23,053 bases of DNA, taken from positions 1-23,053 of IMG/VR virus record IMGVR_UViG_2537562020_000011; one strand, 5' to 3'. How positions within the stretch are numbered: position 1 is the first letter of the stretch; every line of letters begins with the position of its first letter. The stretch comes from a virus. Its lineage: Duplodnaviria; Heunggongvirae; Uroviricota; Caudoviricetes. The position numbers are program-made. Of this stretch, positions 15,001 through 23,053 are shown in pieces.

Positions 15001-18000
15001 TCAAAAAATGTCTTGATTTTTTACGCATAAACTGTTTCAATCCAGCTACGCTTCGCAAAGCTATACCGCGAGGCGAATAGCAGACATGGACACCTGAAAG
15101 AACCCGCTTTATGCGGGTTTTTTTGTGCCCGAAAAGCGGTACAGGACGTTAAATGCGCTGGTGGTTGCGAATGCCGGTCTTTCAGCTTGCTGGCTTTTTC
15201 GACAAGAGGTATTGGTATGTCACGTTAACCGGGAAAGGGAAAAAGGCATGCTAAAACAGCAGGATATGACCGAAACCGCCAGAGTGGTGTTTAATGAATT
15301 AAGCATCACCGAACCGGCGACCGTCGGGGAAATTGCGCAGAATACTTACCTTTCACGCGAACGCTGCCAGTTAATACTGACTCAGCTTGTTATGGCGGGT
15401 CTGGCAGATTATCAGTTCGGTTGTTACAGACGCCTTCCGCAGTGAAGGCTTTTTAATTTGTGGTAATGGGCGGCTGGGGGGTGTTAGCGGCACCTGCCAG
15501 CCATCTGCTCATGCGTTGGGGTCACAAGCAAACCTCAGGCCCATCTGCTTTGCGCAAAAGCGGTATGAGCCTATCAGAGAAGTGCTTATTGATCTATGAT
15601 TAATACTGTAAAAATATCCAGTTGTGAGTTAATCAACGCTGATTGCCTGGAGTTTATCCAGACCTTACCGGAAAATTCTGTCGATCTGATAGTCACAGAC
15701 CCGCCATACTTTAAAGTGAAGCCCGAGGGCTGGGATAACCAGTGGGAGGGCGACGATGATTACCTGAAATGGCTGGACCAGTGTCTGGCGCAGTTCTGGC
15801 GGGTACTGAAGCCTACCGGAAGTCTTTACCTGTTCTGTGGTCATCGCCTGGCATCTGACACCGAAATCATGATGCGTGAGCGCTTTAATGTGCTGAACCA
15901 CATTATCTGGGCGAAGCCGTCCGGACGCTGGAACGGGTGCAATAAGGAAAGTCTGCGGGCGTATTTTCCGGCAACAGAGCGCATTCTGTTTGCAGAACAT
16001 TATCAGGGACCGTATCGCCCGAAAGATGATGGCTATGTGGCACAGGGGCGCGAGCTAAAACAGCACGTCATGGCCCCGCTGATTTCTTACTTTCGTGATG
16101 CGCGTAAATCACTGGGAATAACGTCAAAACAGATAGCGGAAGCCACCGGAAAGAAAAACATGGCTTCGCACTGGTTTGGTACCAGTCAGTGGCAGTTACC
16201 GAACGAGGGTGATTACAACAAATTGCAGGCGTTGTTTGCGCGTGTTGCGGCAGAAAAACATCAGCGCGGGGAACTGGAAAAACCACACCACCAGCTGGTC
16301 AGCACATACAGTGAGCTGAACCGGCAGTATACGGAACTGCTGAGTGAATATAAAAATTTGCGGCGGTATTTCGGTGTGACGGCGCAGGTTCCGTACACCG
16401 ATGTCTGGACGCATAAACCGGTGCAGTACTATCCAGGGAAACATCCGTGCGAAAAACCGGCAGAAATGCTGCAGCAGATAATCAACGCGAGCAGTCGTCC
16501 GGGAGACCTGGTTGCAGATTTTTTTATGGGTTCAGGTTCAACGGTAAAAGCGGCGATGGCACTGGGGCGTTGTGCGATTGGTGTTGAGCTGGAGACAGGA
16601 CGTTTTGAACAGACAGTCAGGGAAGTTCAGGATTTAATCGTTTGAAACGGATGAGATTGCAGAATTAATTACGCACCATTATTATTCTGCTCCCGGCCCT
16701 TTAGCTCAGTGGTGAGAGCGAGCGACTCATAATCGCCAGGTCGCTGGTTCAAATCCAGCAAGGGCCACCATCACATACCGCCATTAGCTCATCGACAGAG
16801 AGTGCCAGCTTTCGAAACTGGCTGTGTGGGGCTCGGGTCCCCGATGGCAATCCATTATCTGCATTATGCGTTGTTAGCTCAGCCGGACAGAGCAATTGCC
16901 TTCTAAGCAATCGGTCACTGGTTCGAATCCAGTACAACGCGCCACGCTTATTTTTCCAGGCTCGCTTTGGCGGGCCTTTTTCATATCCGCGCCCGTTATG
17001 AAGCGCCACCGCGTTCTGCTAATGCTGAAGCCCTTCGTCAGCTGACTGATGTTGCAGATACTGATGATACTGTGAATGTGCTGTGTCTGTGTCTGGATAT
17101 CGCTGACCAGGACGGTATCGGTCAGGAAGAAGAAGCGCAACTGAAGAAAATTGCGCAGGCGCTGCAGTTGCCGCTGGAGCAGTACCTGTGAAAAGTGCGC
17201 GCCTTGTGCTGGCTGTCATCCTGTTGTTTCTGGTAGTGATGGTGGATTTCACCGGACGACTGATGTCAGTGCTGGCAGATGGTGTGCTGGTGGCGATGGC
17301 GCTGATCGTGCTCCGGCCTTTACTGCGAAAATCTGAATAACATCACACAAAAGGCATCTGCGGGTGCCTTTGACGGGGTGTTTTTTTACGGGTCGCTGGT
17401 GGCCCTTTTTTTATTTTCAGGAGGAAGTATGTCTGAACCCTTATCCGGTTCCGGCACGGCTGCGGCGCTGGGTGGCGCGACGGTAACGGTACAGAAAGAC
17501 GGACGGCGAGTGGAGTTTACGGCCACTTCCGTGTCTGACCTGAAAAAATACATTGCGGAGCTGGAGGTGCAGACCGGCATGACACAGCGACGCAGGGGAC
17601 CTGCAGGATTTTATGTATGAAAACGCCCACCATTCCCACCCTTCTGGGACCGGACGGCATGACATCGCTGCGTGAATATGCCGGTTATCACGGCGGTGGC
17701 AGCGGATTTGGTGGGCAGTTGCGGGCGTGGAACCCACCGGGTGAAAGTGTGGATGCAGCCCTGCTGCCCAACTTTACCCGTGGCAATGCCCGCGCAGACG
17801 ATCTGGTACGCAATAACGGCTATGCCGCCAACGCCATCCAGCTGCATCAGGATCATATCGTCGGGTCTTTTTTCCGGCTCAGTCATCGCCCAAGCTGGCG
17901 CTATCTGGGCATCGGGGAGGAAGAAGCCCGTGCCTTTTCCCGCGAGGTTGAAGCGGCATGGAAAGAATTTGCCGAGGATGACTGCTGCTGCATTGACGTT

Positions 18001-21000: not shown

Positions 21001-23053
21001 CAGGCAGCGAGGGAAGCCACGGAACAGCGCCTGAAGGAACAGTATGGCGATAATCCTCTGGCGCTGAATAACGTCATGTCAGAGCAGAAAAAGACCTGGG
21101 CAGCTGAAGACCAGCTTCGCGGGAGCTGGATGGCAGGCCTCAGGTCAGGCTGGAGTGAGTGGAAAGAGAGCGCCACGGACAGTATGTCGCAGGTTAAAAG
21201 TGCTGCCACGCAGACCTTTGATGGTATTGCACAGAATATGGCGGCGATGCTGACCGGCAGTGAGCAGAACTGGCGCAGCTTCACCCGTTCCGTGCTGTCC
21301 ATGATGACAGAAATTCTGCTTAAGCAGGCAATGGTGGGAATTGTCGGGAGTATCGGCAGCGCCATTGGCGGTGCTGCCGGTGGTGGCGCATCAGTGTCAG
21401 GCGGTACAGCCATTCAGGCTGCTGCGGCAAAATTCCATTTTGCGACCGGGGGATTTACGGGAACTGGCGGCAAATATGAGCCAGCGGGGATTGTTCACCG
21501 TGGTGAATTTGTCTTCACGAAGGAGGAAACCAGCCGGATTGGCGTGGGAAATCTCTACCGGCTGATGCGCGGCTATGCGGAAGGTGGTTATGTGGGCGGT
21601 GCCGGAAGTCCGGCGCAGATGCGGCGGGCGGAAGGCATTAATTTTAATCAGAACAATCACGTGGTGATTCAGAACGACGGTACGAATGGTCTGCCAGGTC
21701 CACAGATGATGAAGGCAGTGTATGACATGGCCCGTAAGGGGGCCCGTGATGAAATTCAGGCACAGATGCGCGATGGTGGTCTGTTCTCCGGAGGTGGACG
21801 ATGAAGACCTTCCGCTGGAAAGCGAAACCCGGTATGGATGTGGCTTCGGCCCCTTCCGTAAGAAAGGTGCGCTTTGGTGATGGCTATTCTCAGCGAGCGC
21901 CTGCCGGGCTGAACGCTGACCTGAAAACGTACAGCGTGACGCTGTCTGTCTCCCGTGAGGAGGCCACGGCGCTGGAGTCGTTTCTGGCTGAGCACGGGGG
22001 CTGGAAAGCCTTTCTGTGGACGCCGCCTTATGAGTGGCGGCAGATAAAGGTGACCTGCGCAAAATGGTCGTCGCGGGTCAGTATGCTGCGTGTTGAGTTC
22101 AGCGCAGAGTTTGAACAGGTGGTGAACTGATGCAGGATATCCGGCAGGAAACACTGAATGAATGCCCCCGTGCGGAGCAGTCGGCCAGCGTGGTGCTCTG
22201 GGAAGGTGAAAGTGAGCCGGGTTCCTGACGGCGTTGCCGAGTACAGCGTGTGGGGGCTGAAGCTGCCGACGCTGCGCCAGCGCCTGTTCCGCTGTGTGAG
22301 TATCCGTGAGAACGACGACGGTACGTATGCCATCACTGCAGTGCAGCATGTACCGGAGAAAGAAGCCATCGTGGATAACGGGGCGCACTTTGACGGTAAC
22401 CAGAGCGGCACGGTGAATGGTGTCACGCCGCCAGCAGTGCAGCATCTGACCGCCGAAGTCACCGCAGACAGCGGGGAATACCAGGTGCTGGCCCGCTGGG
22501 ACACGCCGAAGGTGGTGAAGGGGGTGAGCTTTATGCTTCGCCGTAAGCGTAAACTGACCGCCGTATGTAGCCATCAGACGAGAATTGGTAACTTAGACGC
22601 CCATCTGATATAGACGGACATCTAAGTATGGAATTACAGGACTGGCGAAAAGAACCTCGTAAAAACTATTCGAATGAATTCAAACTTCGTATGGTGGAAC
22701 TGGCATCACAACCTGGAGCTTGTGTTGCACAGATTGCACGTGAAAATGGCGTCAATGATAATGTTATTTTCAAATGGCTCAGGCTCTGGCAGAACGAAGG
22801 GCGTGTTTCGCGGCGTCTTCCGGTAACGACCTCTTCTGACACTGGCGTTGAATTATTACCTGTAGAAATAACGCCGGATGAGCAGAAAGAACCTGTGGCG
22901 GCCATTGCGCCGTCTTTATCCACTTCCACTCAGACCAGAGTCAGTGCCAGTTCCTGCAAGGTGGAATTCCGTCACGGTAACATGACGCTGGAAAATCCAT
23001 CGCCAGAGCTGCTCACAGTGTTGATCCGTGAACTGACCGGGAGGGGAAGATGA

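Follow-up and report, generated by a model that had tools for sequence, protein, structure and literature searches.

Four deletion junctions in the late operon of a defective lambda-like Escherichia coli prophage, with cut points that recur in other prophages

We asked how the morphogenesis module of a lambda-like viral element came to be a row of gene fragments, and whether anything beyond ordinary prophage decay is needed to account for it. The window, the whole stretch of 23,053 nucleotides analysed here (IMG/VR record IMGVR_UViG_2537562020_000011), carries homologues of lambda W, B, FII, Z, H, M, L, and J in lambda order (Pfam gpW, Phage_portal_2, Phage_attach, Minor_tail_Z, TMP_2, Phage_min_tail, and Ig_J), and a Pfam search confirmed the identity of each remnant. 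A first-pass annotation had read positions 16945-22546 as a lambda-type module reduced by a chain of deletions. As a reference we chose a near-identical, almost intact prophage, L003 of E. coli ATCC 43896, which occupies the same attachment site between potC and potB. BLAST alignment gave five collinear blocks with 99.75-100% identity to L003 (Table 1), and comparison with this sibling bore out the deletion chain. Lambda-like phages also aligned in collinear blocks, at 95-96% nucleotide identity to the window. Very probably, the region is what recent decay has left of the late operon (lysis and morphogenesis) of a lambda-like prophage, inserted between potC and potB in an enterotoxigenic (diarrhoeal) E. 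coli lineage.

Table 1. Collinear blocks, remnants and junctions in the window, with their counterparts in the reference prophage L003
Feature	Position in window	Strand	Details
Collinear block 1	12671-17485		BLAST against L003
Native pre-lysis region: partial hypothetical gene and DUF3927 gene	16988..17340	+	Same layout in L003 20822-21174
holin' (Phage_holin_8), first 19 codons (57 nt), left of J1	17429..17485	+	Collinear with L003 to 21319, within holin 21263-21652
Collinear block 2	17482-19030		BLAST against L003
J1	17485/17486		Holin codon 19 to W codon 25, in frame; 7541 bp lost (L003 21320-28860)
'W (head-tail joining protein), codons 25-68	17486..17620	+	Pfam gpW residues 14-62
Portal B', nt 1-1414 of 1602, cut at J2	17617..19030	+	Pfam Phage_portal_2
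Collinear block 3	19029-19416		BLAST against L003
J2	19030/19031		B nt 1414 to FII nt 67; 3425 bp lost (L003 30406-33830)
'FII, nt 67-354 (3' part), right of J2	19031..19318	+	Pfam Phage_attach profile positions 17-96
Z', first 29 codons (87 nt)	19330..19416	+	Ends just past palindrome AATGGCCATT, at recurrent breakpoint
Collinear block 4	19414-22204		BLAST against L003
J3	19416/19417		Z codon 29 to H codon 61, in frame; 2658 bp lost (L003 34217-36874)
Tape-measure 'H, codon 61 to stop	19417..21804	+	Pfam TMP_2, Tape_meas_lam_C
M (minor tail protein), intact	21801..22130	+	Pfam Phage_min_tail full length; L003 39259-39588
L', first 25 codons (75 nt), left of J4	22130..22204	+	Collinear with L003
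Collinear block 5	22202-22542		BLAST against L003
J4	22204/22205		L codon 25 to J nt 1629, out of frame; 3629 bp lost (L003 39663-43291)
'J', nt 1629-1966, internal, out of frame with L'	22205..22542	+	Pfam Ig_J
IS66-family element, left end	22543..23053	+	Begins GTAAGCG; tnpA from 22628

Might the fragments be the native gene order of some other phage lineage, as the first-pass annotation had allowed, or an artefact of assembly? Beyond the origin of the window in a draft contig, nothing speaks for either. The same junctions occur in five complete, independently assembled genomes; the breakpoints fall inside open reading frames, interrupting the holin, W, B, FII, Z, H, L, and J genes; and the sibling, 99.9-100% identical in the retained blocks and inserted at the same site, preserves the lambda gene order in full, which rules out contiguous native genes. 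We give this pair of possibilities practically no weight.

Alignment to L003 also trimmed the affected region at both ends. Positions 16945-17428 are native, arranged as in the intact relative and not rearranged, and the J piece ends at 22542 by insertion of the IS66-family element, which had gone unnoticed, not by a fifth deletion. Both the window and its source contig end inside this element; in strain E8, J runs on to its natural end. W had rightly been credited with a new N-terminus, whose origin in a holin fragment had been missed; the Phage_holin_8 match itself was obtained for the intact holin gene of the relative. The fusion is a 63-aa open reading frame (17429-17620), annotated by PGAP in strain E8 as WP_001393479.1. 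The truncated portal frame continues to 19062 and is a pseudogene missing its C-terminus according to PGAP, which calls the same pieces pseudogenes in relatives. Between J2 and J3 an island of 388 bp from FII and Z is retained. The 89-aa FII product is uninformative for J2, as gene callers also predict it in intact phages. The in-frame Z-H fusion, already recognised as such, forms an 824-aa open reading frame (19330-21804; Pfam Minor_tail_Z residues 3-36), and the exact allele matched its source contig only, because the window carries private substitutions.

With four intervals of L003 absent, the element lacks a full complement of lysis, terminase/cos, head, and tail genes and is therefore filed as defective. 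The loss of terminase, capsid, major tail, and tip-assembly genes, and with it the inability to form particles, had been correctly called; the lysis genes and the cos region have gone as well, so that the missing parts comprise lysis, cos/terminase, C, D, E, FI, U, V, G, T, K, and I. Without them the element is also unable to lyse its host or to package DNA.

All four junctions could be mapped to the base by alignment. The earlier estimates for J2, J3, and J4 lay within a few bases, and that for J1 (about 17430-17480) fell short of the actual join. Together the deletions took out about 14.5 kb of phage DNA (17.3 kb if the IS in the reference is counted); the 7541 bp lost at J1 include a 2.7-kb ISCro1 carried by L003 only. 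When the junction sequences were compared with L003, the overlaps at the four joins were 1, 2, 3, and 3 bp, without an IS or long repeat (the chance of an overlap of at least 1, 2, or 3 bp is 0.44, 0.16, and 0.05, respectively). No IS copy or IS end was found at J1-J4, where phage DNA is joined directly to phage DNA (the one IS present is the IS66-family insertion at 22543), and there were no direct repeats of tens of bp at the parental breakpoints, whose flanks share 1-3 bp. Judged by these sequences, the joins are illegitimate and of microhomology level. The suggestion of repeated recombination thus holds for repeated events and fails for homologous recombination.

Four independent illegitimate deletions, each sealed over a chance overlap of 1-3 bp, very probably produced the present arrangement, presumably through end joining or template switching at microhomology. 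The Z-to-H deletion (J3) was probably the earliest, the IS66-family element entered the J remnant later, and loss of the lethal lysis and packaging genes may have been favoured or neutral.

The distribution of the junctions bears on whether the deletions were separate. All four are identical in three complete genomes, and J1-J3 are shared by the five complete genomes mentioned above and by many draft and metagenome contigs. Among 5426 complete genomes J1-J3 are completely linked, as they are in the contigs shown, and no contig separating J1 from J2 was found: all ten of the ten places shown, from the 24 contigs read that encode the J1 fusion, carry J2 and J3 too. Such linkage, the microhomology at the joins, and the near-identity of the retained DNA to the intact sibling (0-2 real mismatches in 5-9 kb) would suit one accident of replication or repair in which the template was switched forward several times and short islands were left behind. 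Two contigs argue against it. One (L036) has J3 only, with A'-W-B-C-D-E-FI-FII continuous and hence neither J1 nor J2; the other (L038) has J3 without J4, with H-M-L-K-I continuous. Moreover, sister strains still acquire single further deletions: three (E54, E1316, and L009) have one from H nt 2502 to stf, and two (L006 and L015) have a 1-kb deletion within the truncated B. A joint origin is possible for J1 and J2 only, and these could share one; a common accident behind all four is improbable. We note that L036 could in principle be a recombinant and not an ancestor.

One point counts against an account by ordinary decay: the ratio of deletions to substitutions is high, with four to six deletions against zero to two substitutions. 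In line with the near-identity of the intact sibling, E54 differs from the ATCC 43896 prophage by two mismatches in about 10 kb of early region. The first-pass annotation had called several deletions in one module unusual, which did not hold up: every other partly deleted lambda-like module that we inspected (among them L005, L027, L028, L029, L040, L041, and L168) has at least two separate internal deletions, and defective E. coli prophages that combine several defects are amply recorded in the literature (PMC2669165, PMC6379469).

We also considered whether what is left of the module still has a function, as a satellite-like or domesticated element that keeps the W and B pieces, H, and M for helper-dependent assembly or as a tail-derived weapon. 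Two of the four fusions (J1 and J3) are in frame, M is intact, and int, xis, regulators, and Q-like genes are still in the early region, judged from the annotation of relatives. Two in-frame fusions are within chance expectation, however, and the element is too young for reading-frame integrity to signal selection. In lambda-like phages cos lies upstream of Nu1. We found neither cos/pac nor a small terminase, as would mark a satellite: Nu1, A, and the region upstream of Nu1 fall in the J1 deletion, which leaves no means of packaging DNA. No helper-exploitation genes were found in the annotation of relatives. A tailocin or domesticated tail fares no better, with U, V (the tube), G, T, K, and I absent and Z, L, and J reduced to fragments; the C-terminus of B is missing, and the piece of J is 338 nt long and out of frame. 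Sister strains, finally, have lost M and the L and J remnants, or most of the B remnant, without replacement. A functional module is thus very improbable, and the holin-W fusion, truncated B, FII, the Z-H fusion, M, and the L and J pieces are very likely non-functional leftovers. Taken alone, the locus is one more defective prophage that needs no special explanation and, apart from its recurrent break sites, shows ordinary prophage decay.

The recurrent break sites, which had escaped earlier notice, are where the locus departs from this picture. Two cut points of the window recur independently in many other E. coli prophages. Z nt 87/88, directly after AATGGCCATT, is a sharp one-sided hotspot with at least 13 different partners at the DNA level: H codon 61, H codon 140, the H 3' end, L nt 10, V, the G/T region, lom, the spacer between lom and stf, the stf 3' end, stf in inverted orientation, an inverted early region, Rhs, and one unassigned sequence. 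Protein tails whose sequences part ways past residue 29 suggest about 10 more, making about 23 in all. The same search design returned no junctions at Z nt 60 or nt 108, nor on the reciprocal side of nt 87/88. These two controls replaced a pattern at Z nt 120 that was unusable, being a common natural allele with at least 120 loci.

Two further positions were used with two partners each. L nt 75 is joined to J nt 1629 in the window and to the stf gene in L045-L047, and may be a third break site of this kind. H nt 2501 follows ATGGCCCGTAA, and no further partners for it were found in an IMG/VR scan. In the native late region GGCCNNTAA has just two sites, the Z and H hotspots. A search with the L N-terminus returned, among the matches listed, predominantly 65-67-aa products that are probably frameshifts at a T6 run and have little bearing on L nt 75. 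In L022 a breakpoint lies near FII nt 62-66, 3-4 nt off the FII end of J2, which could be chance. Four hits from metagenome and GTDB pattern scans (L039 and L042-L044) were discarded as unrelated sequences sharing a 21-mer by chance, and a lambda-like Z fragment was not found in K-12 Rac.

The Z and L breakpoints, at least, are not random, since they coincide with recurrent one-sided break sites of the module. The choice of break site is therefore not purely random, and generic decay does not supply the whole mechanism. Breakage at Z nt 87/88 (and possibly at H nt 2501 and L nt 75) could result from a sequence-specific process, through a nuclease or nickase, a topoisomerase site, or polar pausing of replication. 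Part of the deletion chain would then represent targeted breakage of the tail module and not random decay. The many partners of the Z site, the empty control and reciprocal searches, the reuse of H nt 2501 and L nt 75, and the restriction of GGCCNNTAA to the Z and H hotspots all favour such a process. Set against them, no agent has been identified, the GGCCNNTAA motif was defined post hoc and is missing at L nt 75, and the Z partners have only TA/ATT(A) microhomology in common. We make no claim for a G-G-N-T-A preference at partner sites, as the G-rich flank may reflect codon and base composition. Inspection of Z nt 88 by eye gave no convincing match to Ter, IHF, dif, invertase crossover sites, IS ends, an integron core, or type IIS/III restriction sites. 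Type I-E CRISPR self-targeting was rejected as the cause: the expected spacer, matching Z by the CTT (AAG PAM) at Z nt 98-100, was absent from 5426 complete genomes (queried as repeat plus predicted spacer, in one register). A candidate hotspot sequence at the Z breakpoint is AATGGCCATTAA.

On balance we consider sequence-specific cutting about as probable as its absence; it would refine the account of serial illegitimate deletion and does not exclude it. The broader proposal, to which we incline slightly less than to its opposite, is that lambda-like tail modules of E. coli contain one-sided break sites, exact to the nucleotide, at which many independent deletions and inversions begin, which would imply an undescribed sequence-specific agent acting on prophage DNA.

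The base finding, then, is ordinary, and the Z hotspot is the unexpected result. The locus is an unusually clean decay record: public sequences cover the parent form while still intact, two or more intermediates, and several descendants that have decayed further. They show directly in what order and at what size the deletions arose and how the ends were joined, and a count of four to six deletions with hardly any point substitutions can calibrate the speed of prophage dismantling. The Z breakpoint would outweigh the locus in importance if the hotspot holds up. If a polar hotspot, exact to the base, is used more than 20 times across unrelated prophages, some specific mechanism of DNA breakage or fork stalling would be indicated, one that acts on a very common phage module. 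The decay of prophage tail genes would then be partly directed, not random, and the hotspot would give experimenters a simple way of studying how bacteria disarm prophages.

Among known systems, a likeness to the Z hotspot is found at a replication arrest site. Bierne, Ehrlich, and Michel reportedly described deletion hotspots at terB in the early 1990s. At terB one endpoint is fixed within a few bases, and the hotspots are polar, with variable partners and short homologies. This matches Z nt 87/88 in its fixed endpoint, polarity, variable partners, and short homology, whereas by eye no Ter-like sequence or known barrier was recognised at Z nt 88. P4-like satellites, PICIs, and capsid-forming PICIs resemble the element in being small and integrated, with int, regulators, and a subset of morphogenesis genes. 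Unlike it, they keep a packaging signal, helper-hijacking genes, and conserved gene sets; the window holds truncated fragments of a full phage whose intact sibling is known and from which the cos interval is gone.

The joins themselves resemble short-homology illegitimate recombination or alternative end joining in E. coli as seen in lambda Spi- assays (PMC3375238, PMC11372144), with overlaps of 1-4 bp and no IS or long repeats. Those assays are laboratory systems confined to the att/bio region, whereas the products in the window are natural and fixed in a lineage, and the endpoint at Z nt 87/88 is reused far more than microhomology alone predicts. As a whole the element belongs beside the K-12 Rac, Qin, DLP12, and e14 prophages and the O157 Sakai Sp prophages (PMC2669165; reviewed in PMC6379469), which are likewise lambda-type and stranded in the chromosome. 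These cryptic lambdoid prophages also combine several independent defects (deletions, IS, and truncated morphogenesis genes) with retained int, regulators, and accessory genes. The window element differs from them in being very young: an intact sibling with identical sequence still circulates, which allows each breakpoint to be placed at single-base resolution and part of the order of events to be worked out.

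The window is the final 23 kb of contig AQCZ01000030.1 (assembly GCA_000354315.2), with a lambdoid prophage integrase at its start and, at its end, an IS66-family element inside which the contig breaks. In complete genomes, the site of the same prophage family is the potC/potB interval, so that the potABCD operon is split. At this site E. coli ATCC 43896 carries an almost intact sibling prophage (L003), which served as our reference for deletions: its gene order is of the full lambda type (Nu1-A-W-B-C-D-E-FI-FII-Z-U-V-G-T-H-M-L-K-I-J-lom-stf), and the sole interruption of its late order is ISCro1 within terminase gene A (L003 24520-27220). 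In the locus of strain E8, potC and potB (L002 311-1105 and 32703-33566) flank the prophage, parting potAB from potCD in this spermidine/putrescine transporter operon.

By megablast against public phages, about 5 kb of the window aligns as four separate pieces, spread over about 14.8 kb of lambda-like late region. Against L003, it resolves into blocks of 99.75-100% identity whose ends set four junctions, J1-J4, with overlaps of 1-3 bp. Pfam confirmed all of the remnants, and the same pieces in E8 are annotated as pseudogenes (PGAP). The first-pass annotation, which had read this region as a chain of four deletion junctions and called for a nucleotide alignment to map breakpoints and microhomology, was thus correct in its observation; its interpretation is partly supported, as described below.

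Coordinates of the deletion junctions and of reused breakpoints (positions without a locus name are in the window; overlap, sequence common to both parental flanks)
Feature	Position	Join or site	Lost relative to L003	Overlap
J1	17485/17486	holin codon 19 to W codon 25, in frame; 63-aa holin'-'W ORF	7541 bp, of which 2.7 kb is the reference's own IS	1 bp
J2	19030/19031	B nt 1414 to FII nt 67	3425 bp	AC
J3	19416/19417	Z codon 29 to H codon 61, in frame; 824-aa ORF	2658 bp	ATT
J4	22204/22205	L codon 25 to J nt 1629, out of frame	3629 bp	GAA
Z hotspot	19408-19417; L003 34208-34217	Z nt 79-88; break at Z nt 87/88		
H site	L003 39185-39196; L004 14382; L036 10242	H nt 2491-2502		
L site	22184-22204; L045 2949	L nt 55-75 (J4 left side)		
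FII site	L169, L171 position 5913; L003 34042	FII nt 278		

The left partner at J1 is a Phage_holin_8 gene (Pfam). The "new N-terminus" proposed for W comes from a fragment of this holin gene, an origin which had been missed. A tandem ACGGTA ACGGTA arises at J1 (17474-17491) with both parental hexamer copies retained, so this is no simple one-copy microhomology join. The internal piece of J is likewise present, and it ends at 22542 because an IS66-family element starting GTAAGCG, overlooked in the first pass, is inserted there; in E8, J runs on to its natural end. With one element in the J remnant of the window (22543-23053) and ISCro1 in terminase gene A of L003, IS66-family elements are active in this prophage lineage. 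Two phage tRNA genes lie directly upstream of the region of the first-pass annotation (16945-22546), at 16695-16770 (CAT anticodon; Met by ARAGORN, Ile by PGAP) and 16868-16944 (Arg, TCT).

The endolysin gene, Nu1, A, C/Nu3, D, E, FI, U, V, G, T, K and I are fully lost, as are the remainder of both holins and the cos-containing stretch before Nu1; what remains of W, B, FII, Z, H, L and J is incomplete. With these losses, the element can neither lyse its host nor package DNA, and it can assemble neither heads nor tails, in agreement with the earlier claim that it makes no particles. It is a defective lambdoid prophage of a familiar kind: not a functional phage, nor a satellite (the packaging signal is absent), nor a tailocin (tube and tip are absent). 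The view that several deletions in one module are unusual did not hold. Every other partly deleted lambda-like module that we opened contained at least two distinct internal deletions: C to V and inside J in F138 (L027); D to E and Z to H in NRZ99027-2 (L028); B to before FI, then a break in I with a tail-fibre fragment after it, and two IS elements, in CFSAN004176 (L029); holin to J and J to stf in the O6:H16 ompW prophage (L005); A to E and Z to the lom-stf spacer in Qin-like remnants (L168); and multiple deletions in L040 and L041. The prophages of O157 Sakai and K-12 present the same multi-defect picture (PMC2669165, PMC6379469).

No IS, long repeat or recombinase-type site is present at J1-J4, and neither IS-mediated nor repeat-mediated deletion accounts for them. 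Overlaps of 1, 2, 3 and 3 bp, set against random-join probabilities of 0.44, 0.16 and 0.05 for at least 1, 2 and 3 bp, are in modest excess, and two in-frame fusions of four are within chance. The joins have the hallmarks of an illegitimate process, either end joining or template switching at microhomology, rather than of homologous recombination.

We searched 120-bp probes for each junction in 5426 complete E. coli genomes. The same junctions do occur in other strains, a point raised in the first pass: J1, J2 and J3 were found in an identical set of five genomes (E8, E54, E1316, E1648 and E1654), all human isolates from Bangladesh, and J4 in three of these five. A single complex event producing all of the deletions is worth considering, given this co-occurrence, which extends to contigs encoding the J1 fusion protein (24 read; J2 and J3 also present in 10 of 10 places listed), and given that retained DNA is near-identical to the intact sibling. 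The sole mismatch in the retained blocks of E8 falls in the J1 alignment overlap, and E54 has 2 mismatches over about 10 kb of early region. Two IMG/VR contigs speak against a single event and settle much of the question. L036 (UViG 2681813421_000001) has J3 and a continuous A'-W-B-C-D-E-FI-FII, and therefore lacks J1 and J2; L038 (UViG 2585427783_000006) has J3 followed by a continuous H-M-L-K-I, and therefore lacks J4. J3 therefore does occur on its own and is most likely the earliest deletion. J1 and J2 could be simultaneous; none of the complete genomes and contigs examined separates them. The repeated recombination suggested in the first-pass annotation thus stands as repeated events, but these were not homologous.

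Decay has continued in sister lines. An additional 8.3-kb deletion from H nt 2502 to stf has removed M, L', J' and lom in E54, E1316 and L009, about 1 kb is gone within B' in L006 and L015, and the window has gained its IS66 element. The deletion chain follows three distinct early/regulatory regions (the E8 type, the window type and a kinase/phosphatase-pair type), so homologous exchange between prophages has moved the chain or its neighbours. The early region of the window (1410-16770) does not match that of E8 or ATCC 43896; it is ~99% identical to the ompW-site defective prophage of O6:H16 strain 2014EL-1346-6. Its large exonuclease gene (1419-3888, minus strand) is split into ORFs of 313 and 499 aa, versus a single 823-aa ORF in relatives, and is therefore probably a pseudogene. 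E8 (L002 28861-31033) and E54 (L004 14403-17597) have the tail-fibre segment in opposite orientations, consistent with an invertible segment; the recombinase gene beside it is reduced to a 64-aa remnant.

Several breakpoints are reused. In L045-L047, from phage with a different portal gene, the partner of L nt 75 is stf nt ~423; a 26-aa L fragment, on record for 713 contigs, suggests that a common repeat boundary lies at this position. Two different deletions begin on their left at H nt 2501/2502 (ATGGCCCGTAA/G), one reaching stf in E54 and the other the tail-fibre-assembly region in L036. FII nt 278 is the right-hand endpoint common to two Qin-like remnants (L169 and L171), with terminase A versus a DUF1398 region as left partners; a 179-bp FII'-Z' island is left there, with reused breakpoints at both ends.

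While searching for J3, we found that its left end is common to unrelated rearrangements in other genomes: Z nt 88 is joined to H codon 140 in NRZ99027-2 and to an Rhs/VgrG island at the DLP12 site in W21. IMG/VR and metagenomes were scanned for copies of the 21-mer up to Z nt 87 in which the next base is not the native one; the further partners that emerged were stf and an early region (both inverted), L nt 10, lom and one unknown sequence. When the Z N-terminus was used as a protein query, many short ORFs proved identical to it as far as residue 29 (...AAAMAI) and divergent beyond, with 16 different tails after this residue and only a handful after any other (23-46). Five such ORFs, when fetched, were confirmed as products of deletions that start at Z nt 88 and reach the lom-stf spacer, V, the G/T region and the 3' ends of H and stf. 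At least 13 partners are verified at the DNA level, and protein tails imply ~10 more.

The same scan design gave no junctions at Z nt 60 or Z nt 108, and no reciprocal product in which Z nt 89 onward is kept with foreign DNA on the left. On this evidence the site is sharp, at nt 85-88 directly past the 10-bp palindrome AATGGCCATT, and also one-sided: what is kept is always the sequence upstream. With its partners it has no more than TA, ATT or ATTA in common. In the native late region GGCCNNTAA occurs only at the Z and H hotspots, a motif noticed after the fact, and it is absent at L nt 75. The 21-mer GGTGCCGCCGCAATGGCCATT is also present, with differing flanks, in unrelated bacterial contigs (L039, L042, L043 and L044, including an Aestuariivirga MAG), apparently by chance. 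A type I-E CRISPR spacer in the register that fits the geometry was considered as a cause; none occurs in the 5426 genomes.

A full-text literature search found no published report of the Z hotspot. This recurrent polar breakpoint, used by J3, is the one feature here that might be new and merits follow-up; the locus itself is ordinary. In its behaviour the Z hotspot appears to resemble deletion hotspots at replication arrest sites, where the endpoint is fixed and polar, partners vary and homologies are short.
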